A stretch of DNA of 32,000 bases from Phormidium lacuna HE10JO (GCA_943370025.1 CALRPI020000018.1:561-32560), one strand, 5' to 3'. Positions 7,197 to 27,209 are shown, counted from the stretch's first letter. Program-made: numbers and translations. Notes: a model not told the origin generated them from the sequence alone.

Positions 7197-7895
7197 CTAT
7201 ACAGCTAAGAATTGTTGGATGACATCTTGGCTGAGTTCGCTAGTTGCTCCAGAGGCGACGATGCCGCCTTTTTGCATGGCGTAGTACCAATCAGCTTGGC
7301 GGACAAAATGCAGATGTTGCTCCACTAAGAGAACCGAGATGCCTGTGGCTTTGACTACTTGTTTGATTGCCGATTCAATATCCAGAATGATTGAAGGTTG
7401 AATCCCTTCGGTGGGTTCATCGAGGACTAATAGTTTGGGTTTGCCCATCAAGGCACGAGCGATCGCTAATTGTTGTTGTTGTCCACCACTCAAATCTCCG
7501 CCCATTCGCCAGAGCATAGTTTTCAGGACAGGAAATAGATCGAAAATTTCTTCAGGAATTTCTTGATTTTTCGGGGGATTATCTAGCGCCTCTAAGCCGA
7601 TAATCAGGTTTTCTTTGACCGTCAAGCGGGCAATAACTTCTCGCCCTTGGGGAACGTAGCCAATGCCTAATCTGGCTCGTTTATCTGGCGAAAGATGATT
7701 GATGGGGCGATCGAGAAAATCCACACTACCTTTGCGGGGTTTGATCAATCCCATAATAGTTTTTAAGAGAGTAGTTTTGCCCACTCCATTCCGACCGATT
7801 AAGCAAATCATCTGCCCTTCAGGAACACTTAGATCCACATCCCGGAGGATATGACTTTCACCGTAGTAAACATCCAAATTAGAAATTTTCAACAT
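7197..7895 (-). CDS. urtE: Urea ABC transporter ATP-binding protein UrtE
   Basis: It has Walker A GRNGVGKT, signature LSGGQQQ and Walker B LLVLDEP. It is the last gene of the five-gene urt arrangement. Confidence 0.9.
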   Translation of the reverse strand: MLKISNLDVYYGESHILRDVDLSVPEGQMICLIGRNGVGKTTLLKTIMGLIKPRKGSVDFLDRPINHLSPDKRARLGIGYVPQGREVIARLTVKENLIIGLEALDNPPKNQEIPEEIFDLFPVLKTMLWRMGGDLSGGQQQQLAIARALMGKPKLLVLDEPTEGIQPSIILDIESAIKQVVKATGISVLLVEQHLHFVRQADWYYAMQKGGIVASGATSELSQDVIQQFLAV

Positions 7896-12888: not shown

Positions 12889-13380
12889 AATCTCTCCTGA
12901 TTTGATTTATCTCCATTTCCTTGGATTATGTATATACTTACAGGGTAGTAAATTGGGTAGAGATAGATAAATCGCTGTGTCTTCAGTTACGTTTTTAGTA
13001 ATAACGAATTGACCAGACATCGAAATCTTTATCTGATGGGGAGACTAACTTAATGCTATTTATTGAATATAAGTCAAGTTATCTACCAGAAGGAATTTAA
13101 TCTACTGCTCTAATTAACTTAGTCAACATTAGTATAGAAAATTTTAATTATTTCCTAGATCAACTATTAGTACATAAACTAAGTTCTGATCGCAAAAGTC
13201 AGCTAACTTAGCTGGGATCATTATAATTAAAGACTAAATTGCCAAATTACAGATTTTTTCTAATCAAGTTTAGAAAACCTGACTGGAGAATCCTCGTTTT
13301 TTCAGGAGGGTGGAAATTGTTCATCCTTCCTATCGAGTCTGGGATAATTCTCCTCTAGAATATATAGCTATCCTAAATAG

Positions 13381-13591
13381 GTTGAGAACGGCTTCCCCTC
13401 CGGGCTGCCGTGTACACACAAGTATTGATCATCTCGTTTAATGGGGAGGATCCCCCTAAATCCCCCTTAAAAAGGGGGACTTAAATTAATTCTCCCCCCT
13501 TTTTAAGGGGGGCTGGGGGGATCAACTCCTGAAACGTAATCGGAATGGACTTGTGTGTACACCGTAGCCCTCCGGGGGAGACGTTCTCAAC
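13381..13591. repeat. Nested MITE-like foldback element
   Basis: The outer 43-nt arms are 13381-13423 (GTTGAGAACGGCTTCCCCTCCGGGCTGCCGTGTACACACAAGT) and 13549-13591, with about 8 mismatches. They enclose an inner inverted repeat at 13449-13523 (GATCCCCCTAAATCCCCCTTAAAAAGGGGGA ... TCCCCCCTTTTTAAGGGGGGCTGGGGGGATC). The flanks share CCTCTARAA...ATCCTAAA direct repeats. Confidence 0.5.
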
Positions 13592-13675
13592 CCTCTAAAA
13601 TCCTAAACTCAATAATTAGGATTACCATAGTCAGTTATTGACTTTTAATTATTTACTGCCAACTAATCTTTATAT

Positions 13676-15184
13676 ATGTATTGTGACTACCTCGAACGCA
13701 TCCTCACGGCTCGTGTCTATGATGTTGCCCAAGAAACTCCCCTAGAATATGCCCCTAATCTTTCCACCCGCCTTGAGAATAAATTGCTCCTGAAGCGGGA
13801 AGATATGCAATCGGTATTTTCCTTCAAGTTGCGGGGGGCTTATAACAAGATGGCTCAGTTGCCCCCGGATCTATTGGCACAAGGAGTTATTGCTGCTTCG
13901 GCGGGGAACCATGCCCAAGGCGTGGCTTTGGCAGCCAGTCGGCTGGGGACACGATCGATCATTGTCATGCCCGTCACTACCCCAGAGGTGAAGGTGAATG
14001 CGGTCAAAGCAAGGGGAGCAGAAGTAGTCCTCTACGGGAATACCTACGATGATGCCTATACCCATGCCCGCCAGTTGGAGCAGGAGAAAAACTTGACATT
14101 TATTCATCCCTTTGATGATCCCGATGTGATTGCCGGGCAGGGGACGATCGGGATGGAGATTCTCCGCCAGTGTCAGCAGCCGATCCATGCGGTTTTTGTG
14201 GCGATCGGCGGTGGGGGCTTAATCTCTGGGATCGCTGCCTATATCAAGAGATTACGCCCGGAAGTGAAAATTATTGGTGTGGAACCAGTGGATGCGGCGG
14301 CGATGTATCAATCTTTGGCGGCAGGCAAGCGGGTTCGTTTACCCCAAGTGGGTTTATTTGCCGATGGAGTGGCAGTACGAGAAGTAGGAGTAGAGACTTT
14401 CCGTTTGTGTCAGCAGTACGTGGATGAAATTATTTTGGTGGATACCGATGATACCTGTGCGGCTATTAAAGATGTGTTTGAAGATACTCGATCGATCCTT
14501 GAACCGGCTGGGGCATTGGCGATCGCTGGGGCAAAAGCCTACGTGGAACGGGAACAGATCACCGGAAAAACCCTAGTGGCGATCGCCTGTGGCGCAAATA
14601 TGAATTTCGATCGCCTCAGATTCGTCGCTGAACGAGCTGAACTGGGGGAACGGCGGGAGGCGATATTTGCTGTGAATATTCCTGAATCGCCGGGCAGTCT
14701 GCGGAGATTTTGTGATTGCTTGGGCGATCGCAATCTAACCGAATTTAGCTATCGGATTGCCGATTCCCAAGCGGCACATATTTTTGTCGGCTTGCAAATC
14801 AAAAACCGAGCTGATGCCGCCCAGATGGTGCAAGGCTTCGAGTCCTGTGGATTTAAAACTATTGATCTCACGGATGATGAACTCACTAAACTCCATCTCC
14901 GTCACATGGTGGGGGGGCGATCGCCTTTGGCACATAATGAATTGCTCTATCGGTTTGAGTTTCCAGAGCGACCGGGGGCTTTGCGGTTGTTTGTCAATTC
15001 CATGAGTCCCAACTGGAATATTAGTTTATTTCACTATCGGAACCACGGCGCAGACTACGGCAGGATAGTGGTGGGAACCCAAGTCCCGCCCCAAGAAATG
15101 GCAGATTGGCAAGCCTTTCTAGATACCCTCGGCTATCAATACTGGGATGAGAGTCAGAATCTGGCTTATAAGCTATTTCTTTAA
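13676..15184 (+). CDS. ilvA: Biosynthetic threonine ammonia-lyase (threonine dehydratase) IlvA
   Basis: It has the PLP-lysine motif (SFKLRGAYN) and a glycine loop (GGGGLISG). Two C-terminal ACT-like regulatory repeats are present, and the 502-aa length is typical of IlvA. Confidence 0.92.
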   Translation: MYCDYLERILTARVYDVAQETPLEYAPNLSTRLENKLLLKREDMQSVFSFKLRGAYNKMAQLPPDLLAQGVIAASAGNHAQGVALAASRLGTRSIIVMPVTTPEVKVNAVKARGAEVVLYGNTYDDAYTHARQLEQEKNLTFIHPFDDPDVIAGQGTIGMEILRQCQQPIHAVFVAIGGGGLISGIAAYIKRLRPEVKIIGVEPVDAAAMYQSLAAGKRVRLPQVGLFADGVAVREVGVETFRLCQQYVDEIILVDTDDTCAAIKDVFEDTRSILEPAGALAIAGAKAYVEREQITGKTLVAIACGANMNFDRLRFVAERAELGERREAIFAVNIPESPGSLRRFCDCLGDRNLTEFSYRIADSQAAHIFVGLQIKNRADAAQMVQGFESCGFKTIDLTDDELTKLHLRHMVGGRSPLAHNELLYRFEFPERPGALRLFVNSMSPNWNISLFHYRNHGADYGRIVVGTQVPPQEMADWQAFLDTLGYQYWDESQNLAYKLFL

Positions 15185-15347
15185 GGAGGAAAGTACCGGG
15201 AGATACAGGGAGGTAAGGGAATAAATAAGTATCTGGTTTGATCATTATTATTGATGAAGATGGCTAACGGCTTGCGCTTCACCGGAAGAAAACAAAGCTT
15301 GCTACGCAACCAATAGCAGATACCGCCGTTCTGAGTTCAAGCTCTTG

Positions 15348-15626
15348 TTATGCTTGATGCTGAGTTTTTTTGCTCTCTATATATTGGCGCAAAACGTTGT
15401 TAATTAGAGTTTTATGCTGTTCTCCTTGAGCCTGAAACCACTGCTTCACGTCAGGATCAAGCTGAACTAGGTTATGGGCTTTATCTGCTGGAATGCGTAA
15501 AGTCGCTTGTTCAAAAAAATCATCTGTCAGCGGTGGAATATCTGAATAATCAATATTCTCTTCTGACCTTGATTCTAAAGCTGCCCAATTAGTACGAGAG
15601 GTACTGTTCAAATCTTTTTTGCTCAT
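15348..15626 (-). CDS. brnA: BrnA-family antitoxin
   Basis: It is a 92-aa protein immediately downstream of, and overlapping, brnT. The C-terminal RHH-like region (VQLDPDVKQWFQAQGEQHKTLINNVLRQYI) is typical of BrnA. Confidence 0.8.
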   Translation of the reverse strand: MSKKDLNSTSRTNWAALESRSEENIDYSDIPPLTDDFFEQATLRIPADKAHNLVQLDPDVKQWFQAQGEQHKTLINNVLRQYIESKKTQHQA

Positions 15627-15867
15627 GACGGTTGGCTCTTCGTGCTGAAATGATTCGGATTATATCTTTTCGACGTTCTGTCCAGACTATTACCGCTATC
15701 CCAAAACCGAGAAAACCGATCCCGATCCAGCGATCTTCGCCATAATCAAAACGATCATCTAGCTCAATCAGCATTTCACCATCAAACATTGAGAGAACAT
15801 CAGCAAAATCAATCTCATGTTTACGGATGTTTTCAAGATTTTTTGCTTCGTCCCATTCAAATTGCAT
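15589..15867 (-). CDS. brnT: BrnT-family toxin (type II TA ribonuclease)
   Basis: The N-terminus MQFEWDEAKNLENIRKHEIDF and the RIISARRA motif are hallmarks of BrnT. Confidence 0.85.
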   Translation of the reverse strand: MQFEWDEAKNLENIRKHEIDFADVLSMFDGEMLIELDDRFDYGEDRWIGIGFLGFGIAVIVWTERRKDIIRIISARRANRHEQKRFEQYLSY

Positions 15868-15918
15868 GAAGGATTAGGGTATGACAGATTAAACTAACCT
15901 CTTTTATTATCACGCATG

Positions 15919-16038
15919 ACGGTTTTGGGAACTCAAGTCCTGCCCCAAAAAATGACAGAATGGCAAGCATTTCTCGATACCCTAGGCTATCAATACTGGG
16001 ATGAGAGTCAGAATCCGGCTTATAAGCTGTTTCTTTAA
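15919..16038 (+). pseudogene. Orphan duplicate of the last ~40 codons of ilvA (including the stop)
   Basis: It translates as TVLGTQVLPQKMTEWQAFLDTLGYQYWDESQNPAYKLFL*, compared with IlvA ...IVVGTQVPPQEMADWQAFLDTLGYQYWDESQNLAYKLFL*. A hand alignment to 15065-15184 shows about 14 mismatches in 120 nt. Confidence 0.85.
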
Positions 16039-16058
16039 TGAGGAGTTCGGGTTAAGGG

Positions 16059-16097
16059 CTTTTTGAGGGGTGGCGCAATGTGTCGCTCCTCAAAAAG
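16059..16097 (+). terminator. Stem-loop CTTTTTGAGG-(19 nt)-CCTCAAAAAG just after the orphan ilvA 3' fragment
   Basis: It has a 10-bp perfect stem and starts 21 nt after the remnant stop codon. It is plausibly the ancestral ilvA terminator. There is no strong U-tract. Confidence 0.4.
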
Positions 16098-16207
16098 TCT
16101 AATTTTATATGCGCATCACGCGCACAAAACCAGGAACCTTAGCTTATTCCGAGGGTGCAGTTAGCAACCGCCCTGTCGCTCGCCACCTTAGCTAGAGAAA
16201 TCCATTC

Positions 16208-16627
16208 TTATTCACCCATATAAGGCTCTCCTGATAAAAGGATCACGAGAAGCATACTTATCCAAACTACAAGCATTAAATAGATTGATAGAGCAAAACA
16301 ATTTAGTACCAACCTTAATACCTTTTGCCATACGTGCTGTTTTCGTCTAACTGCTATGATAACCTTCATCACTCCTGTAATAACAAGCGGTAGAGTCGAG
16401 ATCGTAGCTAAAAGCCAACCACAGAAAAAAGAGATAACTGGTGCTACGTTGAACACTATACTCATCACCATGATTAGACAAGCCAAGACGAGCAAGCTTG
16501 AACAAGTGAGTTCTACGAGGAGAATTCCCTTGCTAGATTGTGTTTGTCTGTGATATTTAAGAGCGCTTTTAGCAATAAGAACTCCATGTAGTCCCGTCAA
16601 CCCAGCAACTGCGTATTCAGGTGACAT
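16208..16627 (-). CDS. Hypothetical small polytopic membrane protein
   Basis: It is 139 aa with about 4 TM helices. I recognise no family. It lies in the HIP1-free patch. Confidence 0.45.
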   Translation of the reverse strand: MSPEYAVAGLTGLHGVLIAKSALKYHRQTQSSKGILLVELTCSSLLVLACLIMVMSIVFNVAPVISFFCGWLLATISTLPLVITGVMKVIIAVRRKQHVWQKVLRLVLNCFALSIYLMLVVWISMLLVILLSGEPYMGE

Positions 16628-16849
16628 TATTGATGCTTAACTCCTGCGTAAGAGCTGTTTGAAAAGTTTGATGGTCGATAAAAAGCCTTCCTCGGATGGC
16701 CTAGTTCTCCCCTGAATGATCGCTAACTCTCACTTTCGCAACTCATACCAGTACCTCTGGAAGCTTGGCAAGCTAAAGACTCTGGTCAGCAGCTGCCAAT
16801 ATCCTTGGAATTCAACCAGAAACCCTCGTCAGTCCGCTGCAAGCACGGG

Positions 16850-17158
16850 TTAGACCGTCGCTACCCGACTATTTAACCACCGCTGAAACGATTTTTGACT
16901 TTCTCCCGATGGTTGCCCAAGAATCAGGTTTTTGAGGCTAATATCTTCATCAAGCTGATTCCAATGGATTCCGCTATCGCCAGCAATGAAGCGATAGTCG
17001 TTACGTTCTTCTACTGAGCCATGCAAGAGGCTAGGATACCATGCTAATGGCACAGATATGGTACGCCCATCAGATAAATCCATAGAGATGGTATCATCAG
17101 TGACGGTCACTTGCTGAATTTTGGCTATTTCAAGCAGTTCAATCGTTAAAGAATTCAT
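16850..17158 (-). CDS. DUF2442 domain protein
   Basis: The pattern ISVPLAWYPSLLHGSVEERNDYRFIAGDSGIHWNQLDEDISLKNLILG matches the DUF2442 pattern (W-P-L...R...I...G..I.W..LD.DIS), from memory. Confidence 0.75.
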   Translation of the reverse strand: MNSLTIELLEIAKIQQVTVTDDTISMDLSDGRTISVPLAWYPSLLHGSVEERNDYRFIAGDSGIHWNQLDEDISLKNLILGQPSGESQKSFQRWLNSRVATV

Positions 17159-17300
17159 TCCAGCCTACTAGTAATTGCTCTTGATGTTCTTCAACAAGTT
17201 TTTGAATGCGGTTAATATCTCTGCGACTAAACCCTCTATTACTTTGAAGACGGATTGGGTTCAAGTCACCGATTGGCTCCTTCTGTCGGAGGACAATAAG
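17139..17300 (-). pseudogene. 3' fragment of a DUF4160-like gene (usual partner of DUF2442) abutting the IS element
   Basis: The open frame reads LIVLRQKEPIGDLNPIRLQSNRGFSRRDINRIQKLVEEHQEQLLVGWNEFFND*. It has no start codon. It overlaps the DUF2442 start by about 20 nt, as in intact pairs. The C-terminal pattern GF..R.I.RIQ.LV.E....LL..WNE.F is family-typical, from memory. Confidence 0.55.
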
Positions 17301-17313
17301 ATTGGGTCGTGCC

Positions 17314-17814
17314 TCAGATAATGGTTGGATAGGTGATTACATCATGCCATGTCCAGGGCTGTAATGCTAATCCTGCTCGCTGGGCTGCTGTTGTCTTAAA
17401 CCGACTATGCCGCCAAATCCAGTTAAAGTAATTCACTACTAATCGAGCCGTCACCTTCGTTTGCTCCCATACTTTGCCAAACTTGTTCTGCCTACGATGC
17501 CAACGCCCAGTTTGCTGCCTGACAATGCCGTTAGTTCGCTCTAATCTTTGCGTCTTGTCTTTGCCGATGTAGTGGAGAATTTCAGGCGGTAAGACCCGTT
17601 CGTAACCTCCCCAATCATCGCTATTCCATTGCTTGCACTCTGTCTTTCCTTCCGTACTGACCACCAACTCCTCAATCAACTCATCGGTATGTTTGCCAAC
17701 TCTTGCAGCTAAAATCAATCCACTGGAATTCGCCAAACTCACCCCAATCCAGCAATCCCCCACCTCTAATTCTCCTGGGAGACATTGCTTTTGTTTTTTT
17801 CCACAAATGACCAC
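17314..17814 (-). CDS. IS1-family transposase, catalytic (InsB-like) frame, expressed by -1 frameshift from the InsA frame
   Basis: DDE-type motifs are present: DELWSFV (in the upstream frame), NSDDWGGY and RLERTNGIVRQ. The frames overlap at GAAAAAAAC, seen as a T7 run at 17794-17800 on the plus strand. Confidence 0.8.
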   Translation of the reverse strand: MVICGKKQKQCLPGELEVGDCWIGVSLANSSGLILAARVGKHTDELIEELVVSTEGKTECKQWNSDDWGGYERVLPPEILHYIGKDKTQRLERTNGIVRQQTGRWHRRQNKFGKVWEQTKVTARLVVNYFNWIWRHSRFKTTAAQRAGLALQPWTWHDVITYPTII

Positions 17815-18143
17815 AATTCATCCGCACTCACTTCTTCTGTTTGTACCGCTTGCATCTGAGCATTATGAACGAGTTGAGCTTGCTGACTGGCGGCACGAAT
17901 AAGGCTCACCACCGTATTATAGGCAAGCCCACTGGTGCGGCTAATACCTCGCAGACTGCTGCCCTCACTATGAGCCTGTAAAACTTGCCGGATTTGTTCT
18001 TCACTTACATGGCGGTGATAATACATTGTGTCAAACCGTTCATTGAACGTTTGCTGGCAATGGGGGCTGAAGTAGCGTTGGCTTCCGTTCGGGGCTTTGC
18101 CGTGTTTATGAGTGCTAAGATAACCACAGAGCTTACATTCCAT
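17766..18143 (-). CDS. IS1-family InsA-like DNA-binding protein (zinc-finger/HTH)
   Basis: It has an N-terminal C-x2-C and an HTH region (SLRGISRTSGLAYNTVVSLI). The second zinc-finger half is degenerate (SPHC). It ends just after the slippery site. Confidence 0.8.
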   Translation of the reverse strand: MECKLCGYLSTHKHGKAPNGSQRYFSPHCQQTFNERFDTMYYHRHVSEEQIRQVLQAHSEGSSLRGISRTSGLAYNTVVSLIRAASQQAQLVHNAQMQAVQTEEVSADELWSFVEKNKSNVSQEN

Positions 18144-18474
18144 AGATTCAACCTGTGATTCGTTGATACTCTATCTTATCAGACCCACCTCTTTTTGATG
18201 CATGACCAACTGCATTAAGCGATCGGGCGTGACAGGCGGATGGCTGGTTCCTATATCTTGCTGCATCGACTTTGCTCCTTTAGTTTTACCACTTCAATTT
18301 TACGGCATTATTCCTATACTATAACTGCTCCACCCTTGGGTGCTTTCGGACTTAGCGATCGATCCAAAGTGCAAGTGCAAAGGCTTTGTATGCAGCCAGC
18401 TAACGACTCAAATCAGCAGTGGCAGATAATCTTTGAAACCCTCATAACGGCTTTCATCCACTGCATTTGAATTG

Positions 18475-19803
18475 TCATGTGTTTAGTAAAGTCAATTGTT
18501 TTGGCTGAAATGGCTCGTCAGATACTAAAGAATTCACGCTTAGATCAACTTTTGCATCAATACTGTTTAATAAAGCAACCATACTGCGACCAACCGCAAA
18601 AGCCAAATTCACAGGTACAGCATTACCAATTTGCTTATATTGACTACTCACAGAACCTGAAAACAGCCATTCATCTGGAAATGTCTGCACCCTAGCATAC
18701 TCCCTAATTTTTAAGGGTCTTGTCTCTTCTGGATGACATCTTTCTGTTTGTTTCTGAGCAGGAGAACAGGTGAGAGTTAAACTTGGCTCATCCCATGAAA
18801 GCCGACGTGCCATCCCAGTTTTCCCTCCACCTAAAAAATAACTACCTTGCATGTATTCTCTTTGAAGATCATCAGGTAAATCTCTCCAGTAACCACCCGG
18901 AGGAACAAAAGATAATATTTCTCTTTTCCTTTTTGGATAAGTCTGTCCCTCTGATGAGGGCACATCAGTATCATACAATTCACCAGATTTTAAAGCATCT
19001 TTTAAAGTTAATATTTTGTAATACTTTGATGGCCATTTAAATGTTGAAAATCGAACTAAATCGTTTCTAATCCCAACCAGAAATAAACGTTCTCTTTTTT
19101 GAGGCACGTGGTAAAATAATGCTTTTAAAACCTTTGGCTCAATCAGCGTATATCCTAAATCCGAAATGATAGACCTGATCACGGATAAAGTTTTTCCATC
19201 ATCATGATTTAGTAAACCACGTACATTTTCCCCAAGAAAAACTTTTGGCCTAACTGTTTTTATGGCTCTAGAAAATTCAAAAAACAATGTGCCTCTAGTA
19301 TCTTCAAACCCTAATTTCTCACCTGCATAAGAAAATGCCTGACAAGGAAATCCACCAGAAATAAGGTCGATATCATTAAATTCCGTAAAGTCCACATTTT
19401 TTATATCACCTTGAATGACATTCCATCTAGGTCGATTAGTCCGCAAAGTCTTACAGGCATCTTTATCAATTTCACTCAGGGCAACAGCACTAAATCCAGC
19501 TTTCTCTAGCCCCAGAGCAAGCCCACCTGCACCTGCAAAAAGTTCGATAGATGAAAATCCTCTTACAGCTTTTATATTTAGCTCTTGATTCCAATCGGTC
19601 TTAATCATATCTCTTACTTCTTCAAACTGAATTAGTTGAGATATTGTATATTCTTTTTTATTTGTAACTGGATTTTGTACAGAAATCAGCTTCCCACTTT
19701 TTTCCCACTTCAATAATGTAGCTTTGGAGACGGAGACTATATCTGCGAGTAATTCTGCTGAAATTGTCATTTTATCAAACATTGAAATCTTCAAATCCTT
19801 CAT
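18475..19803 (-). CDS. DNA (cytosine-5)-methyltransferase with an N-terminal MerR/excisionase-type HTH extension
   Basis: C5-MTase motifs are present: I FAGAGG, IV GGFPCQAFS, VI GENVRGL, VIII QKRERLFLVG and X GNAVPVNLA. About 80 aa of N-terminal HTH precede them (ISAELLADIVSVSKATLLKWEKSGKL). Alternative starts lie at 19782 and 19770. Confidence 0.92.
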   Translation of the reverse strand: MKDLKISMFDKMTISAELLADIVSVSKATLLKWEKSGKLISVQNPVTNKKEYTISQLIQFEEVRDMIKTDWNQELNIKAVRGFSSIELFAGAGGLALGLEKAGFSAVALSEIDKDACKTLRTNRPRWNVIQGDIKNVDFTEFNDIDLISGGFPCQAFSYAGEKLGFEDTRGTLFFEFSRAIKTVRPKVFLGENVRGLLNHDDGKTLSVIRSIISDLGYTLIEPKVLKALFYHVPQKRERLFLVGIRNDLVRFSTFKWPSKYYKILTLKDALKSGELYDTDVPSSEGQTYPKRKREILSFVPPGGYWRDLPDDLQREYMQGSYFLGGGKTGMARRLSWDEPSLTLTCSPAQKQTERCHPEETRPLKIREYARVQTFPDEWLFSGSVSSQYKQIGNAVPVNLAFAVGRSMVALLNSIDAKVDLSVNSLVSDEPFQPKQLTLLNT

Positions 19804-20644
19804 AGTTCTTGAAAGAAAGTAAGTAAATACTTTTCAATAAATTAGGATCAATATCCTTTAGTTCTCTAAATACAGAGTTTGACTCTGCTTCAATATCACT
19901 GCTATCTACAATATCTTGGATTATCAAAGGCAATTTTTCGCATAGTTTCTTGAATGCAAACTTGCTGCCGGTCACTAATTCATAAAACCTATCAATAGAA
20001 ACGCGACGTATTCTTTCATTTGATACACTTTGGCCGTCTAAGCTCACCCTCCACACGATATTTTGGCTTCTTTTCGCAATCACTTCTACCAGCATACATG
20101 TTGCCTGTGGATTTGACAGCAAGGTATTTTGCATTCTCATGTAAGTCTTTTGGGCAGATGATGAATTCATGGTGTTATGTTTGTTTTTTATCTCAACATA
20201 ATACATAAGCGCGGTATTTACTACGTCATATCCTTGCGCTGGTACTATCCATTCATCACTCAGGTATCGAAAGATATTTTGATGAAAATAGCCGATGTGA
20301 TTTGTGTTAGATTTATCTATTTGCCTAAGAACTTCACTCTCTATCACAAATTCGATGCTCTTACGATAAACTTTTGCATCGAATGTCAATTTAATTGGGT
20401 CTAATAAATTCTTATTGAACTCAGCTAAGTCAATGCGAAATCTGTATTTCCTTACAGTCTCTTTGACATGATGATAGATATTTTCGTTACTTATAAAGCC
20501 AAGATTATAATCTCTCATCTTTCCTTTTGGATACAATTGATCTTGCACCTGAATTTTGACAAATAAATATGGATTAGACGGAGATTTTTTGTCTAATCTG
20601 ACCACAAGGTATATAGTCTGAATGTCAAGTTTCTGACTAATCAC
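19775..20644 (-). CDS. Candidate type II restriction endonuclease partner of the C5 methyltransferase
   Basis: It lies directly upstream of the MTase gene and overlaps or abuts it. A PD-(D/E)xK-like arrangement, GYD...VEIKNK, is present. The stretch EIKNKHNTMN reminds me of Eco47II/Sau96I-type enzymes, but this is unverified. Confidence 0.55.
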   Translation of the reverse strand: MISQKLDIQTIYLVVRLDKKSPSNPYLFVKIQVQDQLYPKGKMRDYNLGFISNENIYHHVKETVRKYRFRIDLAEFNKNLLDPIKLTFDAKVYRKSIEFVIESEVLRQIDKSNTNHIGYFHQNIFRYLSDEWIVPAQGYDVVNTALMYYVEIKNKHNTMNSSSAQKTYMRMQNTLLSNPQATCMLVEVIAKRSQNIVWRVSLDGQSVSNERIRRVSIDRFYELVTGSKFAFKKLCEKLPLIIQDIVDSSDIEAESNSVFRELKDIDPNLLKSIYLLSFKNYEGFEDFNV

Positions 20645-20859
20645 CCGATGGAAGATATTATACGAAAAAATTCTGCTTAATATCCCATTTTGGGGTAGCT
20701 AGAAGGGATTTCTCTGCTTAATCATCTATTTGAAGGGTTAGCCCGACGGCAGCAGGTATTATTTAACGCGAGTCTCCAACAGTACGTTCTGCTACAAAGT
20801 GGGGAAACTAAATTCGGTAGATTCAACTACACCCTATTTGTAATTTGGCTAATGAATTA

Positions 20860-21786
20860 ATGCGAATTGAGCAGTTACAGGCTTTTTTGGCGGTGGCAGA
20901 AACTGGGAGTTTTCAAAAGGCAGCACAACAGTGCCAAGTAACCCAATCGACTATTAGCAGACAAGTTCAAGCATTGGAAACAGAACTGGGGCTGCCCTTG
21001 TTTCATCGAAGTAATTATTCTAAACCCACGATCGCTGGCGATCGCCTCCTCCGCTATGCCCGGAAAATTTGCCAAGACTGGCGTAATGCTACCCAAGAAT
21101 TGTTGGAACTCCGGGAGGGTAAGCAGCCAGAATTGTGTGTGGCAGCGATTCATTCTGTGTGTGCCTACCACCTGCCCAAAGTGTTACAAATGTTTTGTGC
21201 CGATTATCCCCAAGTGCAGTTACGGGTGACAGCTTTGGGAAGCGATCGAGCTTTGAAGGTTCTTAAGGATGGGCTGGTGGATCTGGCGATCGTCATGCAT
21301 AATCGCTACCTGACCAACAATGCAGAAGTGGTGGTGGAAAAGCTGTTTGATGAGCCGATCGAAGTTTTGATGGCGGCGGATCACCCCTTAGCAAAATCTC
21401 AGCTAGTGTCTTGGGCAGAAATTGCCCCCTATCCCCAAGTAGTTTTTAAGCACGGCTACGGAATGCAGCGGATTATTCAAGAGCAGTTTTCTTTACTGGG
21501 AGTTAGTCTCCATGCCGCCTTGGAACTAAACACCCCCGATGCCTTTCGAGGAGTAGTCCGCCAGAGCAAAATGATTGCCCTGTTGCCCCGATCGGCAATG
21601 TTAGAGGCTCTGGACGACCCAACCCTGGCAGTGCGATCGATCATCACGGAACCGATAAAAAATCTTCAAGCCATCCCCTTTAGCCGTCAAGTTGTCTTAG
21701 TCACCACGAGCGATCGCCTAGAAATTCCCCCCATCCAACATTTCCATCAACTAGTCAAGCAACACCTTGGGACAGTTATCAGTTAA
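20860..21786 (+). CDS. LysR family transcriptional regulator
   Basis: The N-terminal LysR HTH reads MRIEQLQAFLAVAETGSFQKAAQQCQVTQSTISRQVQALETELGLPLFHR. The track ORF starts at a TTG at 20845, but the ATG at 20860 is preferred. Confidence 0.9.
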   Translation: MRIEQLQAFLAVAETGSFQKAAQQCQVTQSTISRQVQALETELGLPLFHRSNYSKPTIAGDRLLRYARKICQDWRNATQELLELREGKQPELCVAAIHSVCAYHLPKVLQMFCADYPQVQLRVTALGSDRALKVLKDGLVDLAIVMHNRYLTNNAEVVVEKLFDEPIEVLMAADHPLAKSQLVSWAEIAPYPQVVFKHGYGMQRIIQEQFSLLGVSLHAALELNTPDAFRGVVRQSKMIALLPRSAMLEALDDPTLAVRSIITEPIKNLQAIPFSRQVVLVTTSDRLEIPPIQHFHQLVKQHLGTVIS

Positions 21787-21892
21787 CAGTTATCAGTTAC
21801 TTGTGCTGAGCTTGTCGAAGCATCAGTTCTCAGTTATCAGTTGGGAACTCTCCATAAGCATTTATCATTGTTTACTGTTTACTGTTCACTGA
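21773..21892. repeat. Heptamer arrays between the convergent LysR and GNAT genes
   Basis: The arrays are CAGTTAT/CAGTTAA/CAGTTAT/CAGTTAC (21773-21800), CAGTTCT/CAGTTAT/CAGTTGG (21824-21844) and an oppositely oriented TGTTTAC/TGTTTAC/TGTTCAC (21869-21892). The first array contains the LysR stop codon. The same heptamer family occurs in the urtB-urtC spacer. Confidence 0.6.
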
Positions 21893-21893
21893 T

Positions 21894-22325
21894 TTAAAGT
21901 TTGAGGGCGAAATGATAACAGGTAATTTCTAGACGCTGGCGAAAGTAGAAACGATGGGCTGCAAAGCGCTGAACGCCCGAATCTAGATGAAACTCTTGGC
22001 AGTTTTGGGTTTTGGCATAGTTCATTAACCATTGCAAAATTTCTTCGCCGTAACCTTGGGAGCGATCGCTCTCCTGAGTAATCAAATCATCCACATACAG
22101 GAACTTCCCAAAAGATAGAGACTCAGAGATCCGAAATCCCGCCACAGCCTTAACCTGCTCTACTCCCGTATTTTCGATAGCTAAAAAAGCTAGTTGATAG
22201 CCTCCCTGCTGTTGCCTGCGGACTTTTGCTACAAATTCCTCAGGGTGTAAATGGGGACGGAGTTGCTGCATCACTGGGAAACAGGCACTAATTTCTTGAT
22301 CGCTCTGGGCAAGTTGTATTGGCAT
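21894..22325 (-). CDS. GNAT family N-acetyltransferase
   Basis: It has the acetyl-CoA-binding motif (QESDRSQGYGEEILQWL). I place the start at the ATG at 22325 (MPIQLAQSD...). The longer track ORF would overlap the upstream gene by about 100 nt. Confidence 0.85.
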   Translation of the reverse strand: MPIQLAQSDQEISACFPVMQQLRPHLHPEEFVAKVRRQQQGGYQLAFLAIENTGVEQVKAVAGFRISESLSFGKFLYVDDLITQESDRSQGYGEEILQWLMNYAKTQNCQEFHLDSGVQRFAAHRFYFRQRLEITCYHFALKL

Positions 22326-23581: not shown

Positions 23582-26170
23582 CTATTTACTTAATTGTATT
23601 TGCTGTTTTACTTGTAAAGCTACTTGAGCTTGGACAAACGGACTATAGATGGGTATCTCCGAATTAATACTCTCAAAACTAGCAGTTAAAGCATAAGGTA
23701 CTTGAGTAGTCGGATCGTTATTCCAGCCTTTATGAGCTACAACTGCTATGCAGAAAGCATCACGCAAATCAAAGGATTTTACAATTGCCCAATCTTTCTG
23801 GACTGTTCCATTTCCTCTAGATGTATTCTTAACACGACTCCCATGATTTTTGTTTTTTCCAAGAGTCCAGTCAAATAAACCTGAGCCATCTTCTTGTTCT
23901 TCAGAAGCCTCATATTTATCAAGAATTTTTTTTAGAAATTTATCTGGAGATTCTCCTTTTTGACTGCATTCCCAATGTAACCAAGTAGATAAATATTTGC
24001 GTTTACTACGCCTTGTTCGGCGTGGCTCAGCTTTGTAGGCAAGTGTAATTTCAACCAGAATATCAAAATCCTCTGCTGGTGATTGCAAAGCTTCAGGAAT
24101 TACTACTTGATAGATATCTGCTTGTTTAGCTTTGATGTAAGTATCACCACTAGTAATTAATGTCACACGATTAGGAGCATTACCAATTGCGCGATCAAGA
24201 TTAGGTAAACCGTAGCCCATCATCCGAATAATTGGTGAGAGGTCTGATTCATTGTTTGTCCATGTAGGCAATCTTGCTGATTGAACAATCAAGGCTTTAT
24301 AAAGCAAACAGCTTTCCTGTGGAAAATTAGCAGCTAATGCGGCGGCAATATAGGTAACTTTAGATGCTGCAAACGATGTCCCCACAGCGTCTGATGAGAT
24401 CGCTGGTGTTCCGCCCATTGTTGTCCTCACTAGTTCAGGACAAACCTCGTTATTAGTTGTAAAACTAGGTGGATCGCCTTCATCTTTAATAAAGTCACCA
24501 CCATATTCCACAACTTCTGGTTTAATCGAATCCCAGATACCATAACCAGTGCAAGAAAATGATGATGGATGATCTTTAGATGCAATTGAAGTTAGTGGTG
24601 GTTGATGATAAGTAATATGAGCAATTGAGCCAACTGTAAGGGCTTGAAAACTTTGAGCAGGATCGGCAACACGAGATGACTTTTCTAACAAATAACTTGG
24701 ATATGGACAGTCATCTTGAAAATGCTCTGTGAGTGTTTTTCGAGTTATGCTAAGCCCTAAGCCACGATTTAATGATAGATTTCCAGCAGAAACAACAAAA
24801 AGAATATCATTTAGCCAGCAAAGGTTATCTATTTCCGCAGCCCAAGCACTCATATAAGTTGTTCGACAAGGACTAGAGCTATTAATGGAATGATTAAAGA
24901 TACGAGTACCTCTTTGGTGATAGAAGTCTACAATTTTTTTAAGGACTTCAGGCATATAGAGATTTAATCTACAATCACCTCCTAATACCCTAGCATTTTG
25001 AAGCCAGCAGATTGCTGATTGACTAGCTTTAGGAATTCCTTGAGGGTATAAAATTGCTCCTGCAACTCTTGTCCCATGCCCTCCACCTTTTACATAATCT
25101 GCCGTTAGATCTATCTCATGAGGAACCCAAGATCGTGAATTATTGCTATCCATAGCAACACGTAATAAAGGATGGCTTTCTTGAATACCGCTATCGATAA
25201 TGCAGACTTTTGGGGCTATTGGCGATGGAGGTTCAAGAGTAAAAGCAGATTCCTGAATACTTGAAGTCCGATTAGCTAAGATTTCTGAAATTTGATCGGG
25301 TTCACTAATTTCAAAAACATATGGATAGTTAGTTGCTAAATCTTTTAAAGCTTTGCCAGAGATTTCAACGCGACAGGAGAAACTATCTGGTAAAAGAGCA
25401 AGGCGAGAACGATCATCATATGAGGCTTCTTGTAAAATAGTTCCGCTAATGTCTGAGATAAATTTTTCAAATTCTAATTGTCTGTTCCACTGTAGATCAT
25501 CCCATTCTTGGAGAGTCTGATCACGTTTGTCAGTCCATTTAGCAACTCTAAGTGCATATTTTGCAGAATCTTCATTTTCGTTTTGAGAAGGATGTAGAGA
25601 AAATTTTGGATTTAGTCCGACACAAGCAATACTGACATCAACTGTATAAATTTGATCGTCTAGAATTTGATCCCATCGCTTAAGCAGATCGGGAGATAAA
25701 ATATATTCCAAACGTTTAAAATTGCCTTCAAGAATTTCCCATATTTCAGCAACTTTGCCACCACCATATTGTTCAAAAATAAATTTTTCAATTTTTTGTT
25801 GCAATTTAGTTAACTCAGCATCAGTATCAGCCGCCGTACCAAGGATGTAACCATCCTCAATCTCTAGGATAACCTCAATTCCAAAGCTTTTGAGATCGTC
25901 TGCATCAAATGATTTGGGATCTATTTTTAATATAAATGATGGAATATTGGGAATTTCTGGCAACCCTTCTTGCTGACGTTCTTCAAATCTAGTTTTCCAA
26001 TCACTCATAATTGTGAACACAGAAGACTGGAGCCTGCGACCATGATTACCTGCATCCCCATGATTGTTAGTAGAACGGCTTGATCGTCGAGGTGGAGTTC
26101 CAGAACGGGCAAAATCTGTAAGTGTGAGTCTTAATGGAATATGCTTAAACTGTTGAGAGCTATCAGACAT
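23582..26170 (-). CDS. Large cytoplasmic S8 (subtilisin-family) serine peptidase, IetS-like
   Basis: The catalytic triad is in D-H-S order: VCIIDSG (D326), GGGHGTRVAG (H365) and GTSFAASKV (S599, codon at 24374-24376). There is no signal peptide. About 315 aa of the N-terminus and about 180 aa of the C-terminus are unassigned. Confidence 0.9.
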   Translation of the reverse strand: MSDSSQQFKHIPLRLTLTDFARSGTPPRRSSRSTNNHGDAGNHGRRLQSSVFTIMSDWKTRFEERQQEGLPEIPNIPSFILKIDPKSFDADDLKSFGIEVILEIEDGYILGTAADTDAELTKLQQKIEKFIFEQYGGGKVAEIWEILEGNFKRLEYILSPDLLKRWDQILDDQIYTVDVSIACVGLNPKFSLHPSQNENEDSAKYALRVAKWTDKRDQTLQEWDDLQWNRQLEFEKFISDISGTILQEASYDDRSRLALLPDSFSCRVEISGKALKDLATNYPYVFEISEPDQISEILANRTSSIQESAFTLEPPSPIAPKVCIIDSGIQESHPLLRVAMDSNNSRSWVPHEIDLTADYVKGGGHGTRVAGAILYPQGIPKASQSAICWLQNARVLGGDCRLNLYMPEVLKKIVDFYHQRGTRIFNHSINSSSPCRTTYMSAWAAEIDNLCWLNDILFVVSAGNLSLNRGLGLSITRKTLTEHFQDDCPYPSYLLEKSSRVADPAQSFQALTVGSIAHITYHQPPLTSIASKDHPSSFSCTGYGIWDSIKPEVVEYGGDFIKDEGDPPSFTTNNEVCPELVRTTMGGTPAISSDAVGTSFAASKVTYIAAALAANFPQESCLLYKALIVQSARLPTWTNNESDLSPIIRMMGYGLPNLDRAIGNAPNRVTLITSGDTYIKAKQADIYQVVIPEALQSPAEDFDILVEITLAYKAEPRRTRRSKRKYLSTWLHWECSQKGESPDKFLKKILDKYEASEEQEDGSGLFDWTLGKNKNHGSRVKNTSRGNGTVQKDWAIVKSFDLRDAFCIAVVAHKGWNNDPTTQVPYALTASFESINSEIPIYSPFVQAQVALQVKQQIQLSK

Positions 26171-27209
26171 GAGCAGTTACAATATCCTGTATTGATTCTT
26201 CTAAATGTTCTTGAATAACAAGCTCTTCTCGATCTAGAATTGCCCGTTTGGCTGCATCTTGAGCAACTCGCACAACCTGAGCCGCCGAGAAACCATTCAT
26301 TTTTTGTACAATTAAGTTCCAATCAATTGAACCAACTGCAACAGAACATAAAGTTTGCTTTAATATTGCCCTAACTTCTAATTCTGTTGGCTTTGGCACT
26401 TCAATAGCATCGTCAAATCTTCGCCACACGGCTTCATCTAAGAACTTAGTTAAGTTAGTAGCAGCTACCAGTAAACCATTTGAAACTTCATATTCATCAA
26501 GGAGTTGTAGAAAAGTATTAACTACACGTTTTATTTCACCAACCTCCTGATTATCCTCACGCGACTTGGCAAGAGCATCACATTCATCAATGAAGAGTAA
26601 ACAAGGAGTTGCCGCCGCAGTTTCAAAGACTTCACGTAAATTTGTAGCAGTTTCGCCTAAAAAGGAAGATACCATTGCATCAAAACGAATTTTAATCAAA
26701 GTTAAGCCCGTATTCCAAGCAATTCTCTCTGCTCCCATAGTCTTACCGCAGCCAGGGGAACCGTAAAGTAATATTTTTTGGCGATAACGCAAACCATGAT
26801 GAGCAAGGCGATCACGAGCAGCATATTCCCGTTCGATCCGACGAAATCTAGTTTCCATAGCATCGGAAAGAACCATGTGATGCCGTAAGCGATCGCGAGG
26901 AACAGTAACAATAAAAGGGTGATTGAATCGGTGTTTACTTGATAATAGAGTTAATGAGCGAGGATCAGAATTTTTAGGTACTGCAAAATTAGAAGTTGAT
27001 AAACTTCTGCCATCATGATCTATTCCCGATGAAGTTTCTAACTTGCTAAGATGATTACTTTTTTGAACAATGTTTTCAAGCTGTTCAGCAAGATTAGTAT
27101 GCCCTTGCTTCCGTTCTTCTTCAACAACTATAGACAACATACCTTGTATTGCCTGCGAATCTTGGCTGGCAACAGCTCGAAATAATCGCTTGAGTACATC
27201 TCCTTTCAT
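26163..27209 (-). CDS. Classical AAA+ ATPase, IetA-like
   Basis: It has Walker A GSPGCGKT (150-157), Walker B LLFIDECD (204-211), sensor-1 VAATN and RRFD arginines. Its stop overlaps the peptidase start (ATGTCTGA). Confidence 0.9.
   Translation of the reverse strand: MKGDVLKRLFRAVASQDSQAIQGMLSIVVEEERKQGHTNLAEQLENIVQKSNHLSKLETSSGIDHDGRSLSTSNFAVPKNSDPRSLTLLSSKHRFNHPFIVTVPRDRLRHHMVLSDAMETRFRRIEREYAARDRLAHHGLRYRQKILLYGSPGCGKTMGAERIAWNTGLTLIKIRFDAMVSSFLGETATNLREVFETAAATPCLLFIDECDALAKSREDNQEVGEIKRVVNTFLQLLDEYEVSNGLLVAATNLTKFLDEAVWRRFDDAIEVPKPTELEVRAILKQTLCSVAVGSIDWNLIVQKMNGFSAAQVVRVAQDAAKRAILDREELVIQEHLEESIQDIVTAHV

Follow-up and report, generated by a model that had tools for sequence, protein, structure and literature searches.

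Makarova et al. are said to have described, in 2011, defence islands in which restriction-modification (R-M), toxin-antitoxin (TA) and abortive-infection-type genes cluster. Two further systems are relevant to the DNA considered here, namely BrnT/BrnA, a type II TA pair reportedly first described in Brucella abortus, and the Eco47II/Sau96I/AsuI family of type II R-M nucleases, for which we take GGNCC to be the predicted target. Genes of both kinds are located between ilvA and a gene coding for a LysR-family regulator in a 32,000-nt stretch of the Phormidium lacuna HE10JO genome (GCA_943370025.1, CALRPI020000018.1:561-32560), and they lie in an interval that is devoid of exact copies of the octamer HIP1 (GCGATCGC). 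The whole 32-kb stretch is hereafter referred to as the window, and all coordinates given without a contig name are positions within it.

The closest precedent for reading the distribution of HIP1 is Synechococcus elongatus PCC 7942, which has 7402 copies in 2.7 Mb, or about 2.7 per kb (Delaye et al. 2011, PMC3025956). In that work HIP1 scarcity was combined with G+C content, codon usage and phylogenetic affinity to flag xenologous genes or islands; the distribution of the motif was termed ‘apparently random’, codon-usage evidence was demanded in addition, and it was pointed out that scarce HIP1 can also stem from selection in highly expressed genes. As in PCC 7942 (PMC3025956), resident DNA of P. 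lacuna would gain HIP1 in situ and new arrivals would come without it. Unlike in PCC 7942, the density here is 0.8 copies per kb, so that a 6-kb gap is expected about 30 times by chance.

The interval between ilvA and the LysR gene probably represents a small flexible patch at a synteny breakpoint, which would have been filled with selfish and defence modules by at least three independent events, none of them needing a dedicated integrase. The initial annotation of this DNA had proposed an accessory patch built by several small events, and the proposal is backed by the insertion footprint of brnTA, the truncation of a DUF4160 gene at an IS1 element and the discrete R-M cassette, that is, by evidence independent of the HIP1 gap. 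The genes it had named (ilvA, brnTA, a membrane open reading frame (ORF), DUF2442, IS1, the R-M pair and LysR) are supported by domain searches (Table 1), and its remark that neither an integrase nor a tRNA is present and that this is no classical island agrees with our results. ARAGORN detected no tRNA or tmRNA in the window, in the search for integrases and recombinases with Pfam and NCBIfam profiles none of the ORFs in the interval proved to have an integrase domain, and Rfam gave no match in 13000-22000. No direct repeats surround the patch as a whole, the sole long repeat (131 nt) bracketing brnTA alone. The locus resembles defence islands in that 12 kb hold the R-M pair, brnTA, DUF4160/DUF2442 and, at a distance of another 3 kb, an IetA/IetS pair, but it differs from them in that the cluster is very small, is interrupted by conserved HIP1-bearing genes and has no integrase or tRNA anchor.

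The host genome assembly (G000) comprises 5.39 Mb in 171 contigs with a GC content of 45.0%, and it was searched for synteny and homology against four congeners (G001-G004), to which the ilvA gene shows 82-86% nucleotide identity, and 26 other genomes of the order. The block extending from position 7197 (urea-type ABC transporter genes) to ilvA is collinear in G001, G002 and G004 and ends exactly at the ilvA stop codon. On the 3′ side of ilvA, G001 and G004 carry other, ordinary genes (peptidase S9, acyl-CoA ligase and YlqD; DUF4347 and peroxiredoxin), the G000 homologues of which are found on other contigs. In the congeners the LysR gene is surrounded by a conserved set of neighbours of its own, whose G000 homologues are on contigs C86, C19, C14 and C40. 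Since LysR keeps its own neighbours elsewhere in the congeners and synteny stops at ilvA, the two genes are not ancestral neighbours, and the patch appears to sit at a rearrangement breakpoint instead of being an insert into a conserved interval. The two checks proposed initially gave a divided answer: the interval is not conserved in the congeners, and long HIP1 gaps do occur in core DNA, as described below. The contigs of G002 and G003 also stop near the 3′ end of ilvA (C194 about 190 nt and C459 about 10 nt before the stop codon), which may reflect strain-level variation at this site or assembly fragmentation only.

The brnTA cassette bears the footprint of an insertion of its own. Both proteins are recognized by their profiles (BrnT, PF04365, 89.7 bits against a cutoff of 34.5; BrnA, PF14384, 34.5 bits against a cutoff of 26.1), and the activity of the pair as a TA system is predicted from domains and gene layout. 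The cassette is bracketed by the 131-nt repeat, one copy of which is the 3′ end of ilvA itself; both copies share lineage-specific characters absent from the congeners, and copy 2 has several derived non-synonymous changes compared with copy 1. The cassette is 85-86% identical at the nucleotide level to single loci in G004 (C113) and G001 (C65), where the flanks are unrelated. The ilvA duplicate, together with the presence of the cassette at other loci of congeners, is direct evidence that brnTA was inserted separately. Like BrnT/BrnA of Brucella abortus, the pair has both domains, with the toxin gene first and the antitoxin gene overlapping it; unlike that system, it forms a portable cassette found at three loci in three species of the genus and bracketed here by a duplicate of the 3′ end of the target gene. 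BrnT-like genes were also noticed near ilvA in 3 of 80 metagenomic loci; with an identity of only 32-38% these were treated as coincidence. The REP-like repeat next to the ilvA remnant has at least 14 partial copies in the genome and a fold z-score of -4.7, and short dispersed repeats of two families, this one and the native repeat in front of LysR, are found at the module boundaries.

The R-M cassette consists of a gene coding for an Eco47II-family nuclease followed by a C5 methyltransferase gene, which overlap by 29 nt and were classified by PADLOC as REase_II and MTase_II. The ATG at 20518 is probably the true start of the nuclease, with the GTG at 20644 being over-extended, because the relatives begin at residue 40-43 of the ORF. 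When compared with G296, a genome of another family within the order, the cassette shows 89.9% nucleotide identity over 2146 bp (18472-20615); its left junction is sharp and the flanks are unrelated, while ilvA is only 74% identical and is located 3.8 Mb from the cassette in G296. There is no match to the nuclease in the four congeners, and among 300 sampled genomes of the order about 5 have a close homologue, with 60% identity or more; the next-nearest relatives belong to other cyanobacterial orders and other phyla. Because of this 90% identity across families against 74% for ilvA, the lack of a match in the congeners and the patchy distribution, the cassette appears to have been acquired horizontally, after the split from the sampled congeners. 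The nuclease-then-methylase unit recurs in other cyanobacterial orders, Proteobacteria, Bacillota, Campylobacterota and Bacteroidota with 57-82% amino acid identity, the values for these four phyla being 57-72%, its gene order is kept in about 30 relatives examined, and the GC content of the nuclease gene is 25-37% regardless of host GC. In G296 the cassette (C1:4416000-4429000) is situated in a 6-kb stretch of 33-37% GC inside a 6.7-kb HIP1-free gap, so the low-GC, HIP1-free signature marks its neighbourhood there as well.

Like Eco47II/Sau96I/AsuI systems, the pair includes a full-length RE_Eco47II nuclease and an adjacent, overlapping C5 methyltransferase; unlike them, its methylase carries an N-terminal extension, for which there is only a weak MerR-like match (E 0.088). 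Cleavage of GGNCC and 5-methylcytosine methylation by the pair are predicted, the specificity being that of the family. There are no GGNCC sites in the patch and seven in the whole window. The predicted target is already scarce genome-wide, because each of the four GGNCC words belongs to the most avoided 5-mers (observed/expected ratio, O/E, 0.06-0.16); GGCC is the most avoided 4-mer (O/E 0.11). GGNCC avoidance was considered as a residence clock for the pair and rejected, being confounded by GGCC and GGWCC avoidance. Palindromes are strongly avoided in this genome in general, many of those of 6 bp having O/E values below 0.05 (GACGTC 0.007, TTCGAA 0.010).

Between these two modules, an intact DUF2442 gene is overlapped by the remnant of a DUF4160 gene, which corresponds to profile positions 30-65 of 65 and abuts the IS1 element. 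Its 5′ half is gone and would fall at the end of the IS1 transposase (17314); a 40-aa ORF at 18174-18293, on the high-coordinate side of IS1, was considered as the lost half and rejected, as even at E 10 nothing in Pfam matched it. The transposase matches positions 1-112 of NF033558 in one frame and positions 113-199 in the next, and PF03400 with 41.7 bits against a cutoff of 24.1. As in cyanobacterial IS1 elements such as ISAcma3 of Acaryochloris, the insA-like and insB-like genes are arranged in two frames with an A7C slippery run (frameshift site) in their overlap; unlike typical cyanobacterial IS1, the element is single-copy, only diverged fragments being present elsewhere in the genome, and it has no convincing terminal inverted repeats or target-site duplication. 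At the DNA level it is 65-77% identical to IS1 elements annotated on cyanobacterial plasmids, with the highest value for a Gloeocapsopsis plasmid. The element may be inactive.

Taken in this way, the patch would have been assembled as follows. In one event, the brnT/brnA cassette of about 555 bp would have been inserted at the ilvA 3′ end by recombination, leaving the 131-nt duplicate, either through single-crossover integration of a circularised fragment or through homology-facilitated illegitimate recombination. In a second event, IS1 would have arrived against the DUF4160/DUF2442 pair, the 5′ half of DUF4160 being lost, presumably because of IS1. In a third event, the 2.1-kb AT-rich R-M cassette would have been acquired horizontally after the congeners had split. 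The separate arrival of the modules by host recombination is suggested by the ilvA 3′ duplicate and the sharp left boundary of the R-M cassette, and the modules would lack the HIP1 motif family as they have been resident too briefly to gain it. The patch would then contain an R-M system acting against unmethylated GGNCC, a BrnT RNase toxin neutralised by BrnA, a DUF4160/DUF2442 pair that has been disabled and an IS1 that may be inert.

It could also be supposed that the whole 5.7 kb came as one block, a plasmid fragment or a decayed island that was later disturbed by IS1. All eight ORFs of the patch have the same orientation (minus strand), as might result from a smaller number of events, the modules are contiguous, and the IS1 relatives are found mostly on cyanobacterial plasmids. 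Such a block is nevertheless improbable, as brnTA is separated from the other genes by the host ilvA 3′ remnant and a native dispersed repeat, and the composition is uneven, with 44% GC on the left against 36% in the R-M pair. Moreover, brnTA alone is shared with the congeners and the R-M pair alone with G296, where the homology is confined to the cassette, and none of 80 R-M loci of other organisms carries any other gene of the patch beside it.

Table 1 Features between ilvA and the LysR gene of the P. lacuna HE10JO window
Feature	Position	Strand	Evidence and remarks
ilvA, biosynthetic threonine ammonia-lyase	13676..15184	+	TIGR01124, E 2e-258; last gene of the block syntenic with congeners
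HIP1-free interval	14925..21037	.	6113 bp; also depleted in CGATCG and GATC
Direct repeat, copy 1	15060..15190	+	Functional ilvA 3′ end including the stop codon; repeat search and alignment
brnA	15348-15626	-	ORF overlaps that of brnT
brnTA cassette, ~555 bp	15363..15917	-	brnA PF14384, brnT PF04365
brnT	15589-15867	-	Toxin gene, upstream of brnA
Direct repeat, copy 2	15914..16044	+	Decaying ilvA 3′ remnant with stop codon, 88% identical to copy 1
REP-like dispersed repeat	16030..16152	.	Directly 3′ of the ilvA remnant; hairpin 16057-16099, 20-bp stem
Hydrophobic ORF, 139 aa, putative membrane protein	16208..16627	-	No family assignment
DUF2442 gene, intact	16850..17158	-	PF10387, E 5.6e-19
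DUF4160 gene, 3′ fragment	17142..17336	-	PF13711, E 7.8e-6, 26.4 bits (cutoff 23)
IS1-family transposase, two frames	17314..18143	-	insA-like 17766-18143, insB-like 17314-17814
Spacer, ~290 bp	18180..18471	.	Both HIP1 near-misses; sole CGATCG between ilvA and LysR
Type II R-M cassette	18472..20560	-	C5 methyltransferase and Eco47II-family endonuclease
C5 methyltransferase	18475-19803	-	PF00145, E 2e-86, 290.6 bits; N-terminal extension of ~80 aa
Eco47II-family nuclease	19775-20518	-	PF09553, E 2e-88, 295.7 bits (cutoff 25.9), full profile; ORF as called 19775-20644
Dispersed repeat, ~200 bp, native	20563..20780	.	Between R-M cassette and LysR; at least 12 copies in G000, also in congeners
LysR-family regulator	20845..21786	+	PF00126, PF03466; carries HIP1; at another locus with other neighbours in congeners

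The HIP1 gap, through which the interval had attracted notice, turned out to be a poor guide to its nature. There are 23 exact copies of HIP1 in the window against 0.24 expected from dinucleotide-preserving shuffles (the initial count was about 22), four of which, as stated initially, are in ilvA (14519, 14579, 14724 and 14917), and the first copy after the gap is at 21038. The absence of HIP1 in between, the near-misses GCGATCGG at 18219 and GCGATCGA at 18355, and the 14 G/C per 60 nt in the line 19801-19860 were all found as reported, and there are three further gaps in the window, each of 4.0-4.2 kb. In the host genome as a whole, 4329 copies in 5.39 Mb correspond to 0.80 per kb. The spacing is essentially exponential (coefficient of variation of gap length 1.006); the counts per 3-kb tile have a mean of 2.41 and a variance of 2.39 (variance/mean 0.99), and 159 tiles contain no HIP1, with 154 expected under a Poisson distribution. 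Gaps of at least 6113 bp number 25 genome-wide, where about 31 would be expected; such a gap is present in 7.6% of random 32-kb windows, and the probability of finding no HIP1 in 6113 bp is 0.010 for a random segment. The length of the gap is thus uninformative, being no rarer than chance in this genome, and the octamer alone is without statistical power because its density is only 0.8 per kb.

Long gaps also occur over core genes: one of 6244 bp (C12:28424-34667) spans genes for a pilB-type ATPase and dnaK, another of 6533 bp (C41:10344-16876) spans accC, and both regions are collinear in all four congeners. HIP1-free stretches as long as the one studied are therefore present in core DNA, and the initial claim that the gap marks the patch is not supported statistically, as gaps of this length arise at the chance rate and two of them lie in core syntenic DNA. 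Of the HIP1 gaps, 57 measure 5 kb or more; 17 of these exceed the 95th percentile of tetranucleotide distance, a six-fold enrichment, and 19 are below the median. The distance was calculated with HIP1 masked, which left a possible circularity; a rerun without all HIP1 sub-tetramers gave the same result. A long gap lifts the odds of atypical DNA to about 30% and is not diagnostic. In compositionally typical DNA, HIP1 is under-dispersed (variance/mean 0.82), with empty 5-kb segments at about half the Poisson frequency, and in compositionally atypical DNA it is over-dispersed (variance/mean 2.06). The Poisson appearance of the whole genome seems to be a mixture of the two.

The shorter words inside HIP1, CGATCG and GATC, are more informative; their genome-wide densities are 2.61 and 6.49 per kb, respectively. 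Within 14925-21037 there are 3 copies of CGATCG with 16.1 expected and 18 copies of GATC with 39.8 expected (empirical P = 0.001). Exhaustive scanning of the genome with sliding 6113-bp windows yielded only 9 out of 88,167 with no more than three CGATCG, and they fall in four genome regions including this one. HIP1 gaps that reach 6 kb number 26, and the gap studied is the poorest of them in CGATCG, with 0.49 per kb where the others have 0.85-3.6, while the control gaps over pilB-dnaK and accC are normal in this respect (1.9-2.1 per kb). From the end of ilvA to the start of LysR, CGATCG occurs just twice, in each case as part of a near-miss in the 290-bp spacer. The other three deserts contain genes coding for leucine-rich repeat and pentapeptide/KfrA proteins, for a CHAT-TPR protein, and for a C5 methylase with a DDE transposase; because these are accessory-type genes, the CGATCG statistic picks accessory-type DNA. 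The longest CGATCG-free gap of the genome (5230 bp, C37:21405-27293, GC 34%) holds a gene for an N6/N4 DNA methylase and one for a 1055-aa AAA ATPase with a PRTase-CE domain, which are probably another defence-type module.

A chance gap in long-resident DNA, its gene content being incidental, would fit the exponential spacing of HIP1, the 25 gaps against about 31, the equally long gaps over conserved core genes and the 19 of 57 gaps in DNA of below-median tetranucleotide distance. It would not fit the depletion of CGATCG at the 1e-4 level, from which the core gaps are free, and that of GATC, nor the end of synteny at ilvA, the insertion footprint of brnTA and the DNA identity of the R-M pair across families. 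For the R-M cassette and brnTA it is refuted, and for the interval as a whole we consider it very improbable. Selection against HIP1, CGATCG and GATC inside genes, as proposed for rDNA and ribosomal-protein genes, with foreign origin not being the cause, can hardly be credited, for although scarce HIP1 has been tied to selection in highly expressed genes (PMC3025956), the patch is not made up of housekeeping genes with high expression, the depletion extends to intergenic DNA, and the independent evidence for transfer of the R-M pair stands.

Assembly of the patch in several events thus remains the reading that we prefer, and beside the common orientation of its ORFs several points have to be set against it. 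The compositional deviance is confined to the R-M pair, whose GC content of 35.8% falls at the 0.7th percentile and whose tetranucleotide distance reaches the 98.9th. The left half of the patch (15185-18474) is unremarkable in both GC (37th percentile) and tetranucleotide distance (83rd percentile), and its depletion in CGATCG and GATC is no more than nominal (P 0.02 and 0.05). The copies of the ilvA 3′ end are 12% diverged, which argues against a very recent brnTA event. The initial description of the patch as recently acquired is uncertain for the left half, with its normal composition and an ilvA remnant already this diverged. For IS1, the search for terminal inverted repeats and a target-site duplication yielded, as best arms, 12 nt at 83% complementarity (17296-17307 and 18168-18179). 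Finally, the congener assemblies are fragmented (130-630 contigs) and 87-95% complete, no same-species contigs were found with IlvA and LysR as queries, and when metagenomes were scanned with IlvA, amino acid identity did not exceed 87% in any contig and patch genes accompanied ilvA in none.

A further suggestion is more tentative, and we hold it to be rather unlikely. The ilvA 3′ duplicate and the very sharp left boundary of the minimal R-M cassette could be footprints of recombinase-independent capture in a transformable cyanobacterium, by homology-facilitated illegitimate recombination or single-crossover integration, with the 3′ end of ilvA being a recurrent capture site in the genus. Two observations would fit such a site, namely that the contigs of two congeners break there and that the other two congeners carry different genes at this place.

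As for the remaining features, the 139-aa ORF scored above threshold with none of the Pfam, NCBIfam and PADLOC profiles, and matches to it were found in 3 of 151 genomes of the order. On the 5′ side of ilvA there is a nested foldback repeat (13375-13597) with a predicted RNA fold of -134 kcal/mol and a z-score of -12.7, present in at least eight copies in the host genome. Its inner 73-75 nt (13449-13523) are 85-95% identical in many genera of the order and are arranged in tandem in G008 with a spacing of about 165 bp. This conserved segment was considered as a tRNA anchor and rejected, as ARAGORN predicted none and there was no credible Rfam match; it is the core of the foldback.

Beyond LysR, a gene pair coding for IetA (AAA+ ATPase) and IetS (S8 subtilase) is located at 23582-27209 on the minus strand (PADLOC E 2e-79 and 2.5e-53, respectively). 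The pair has a low GC content and no DNA match in the four congeners, and it contains a 3429-bp CGATCG-free gap, the 15th longest of 13,893 in the genome. Judging from the genes predicted, the IetA/IetS pair, the R-M pair and brnTA appear to make up a defence cluster of small size, with three genes that carry HIP1 (LysR, GNAT and ferredoxin/MBL) interspersed.

The patch is an ordinary one, representing genome flux of known kinds of elements. At about 0.8 HIP1 copies per kb, HIP1-free stretches of 6 kb arise at the Poisson rate over core genes such as dnaK and accC, and HIP1 gaps alone should not be used to call foreign DNA in such a genome. CGATCG, which is three-fold commoner than HIP1, separates accessory DNA from chance gaps, the four poorest regions all being of accessory type. 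The patch also illustrates how TA and R-M cassettes move without recombinases of their own, with brnTA bracketed by a duplicate of its target and a 2.1-kb two-gene R-M unit found at 90% DNA identity between families.

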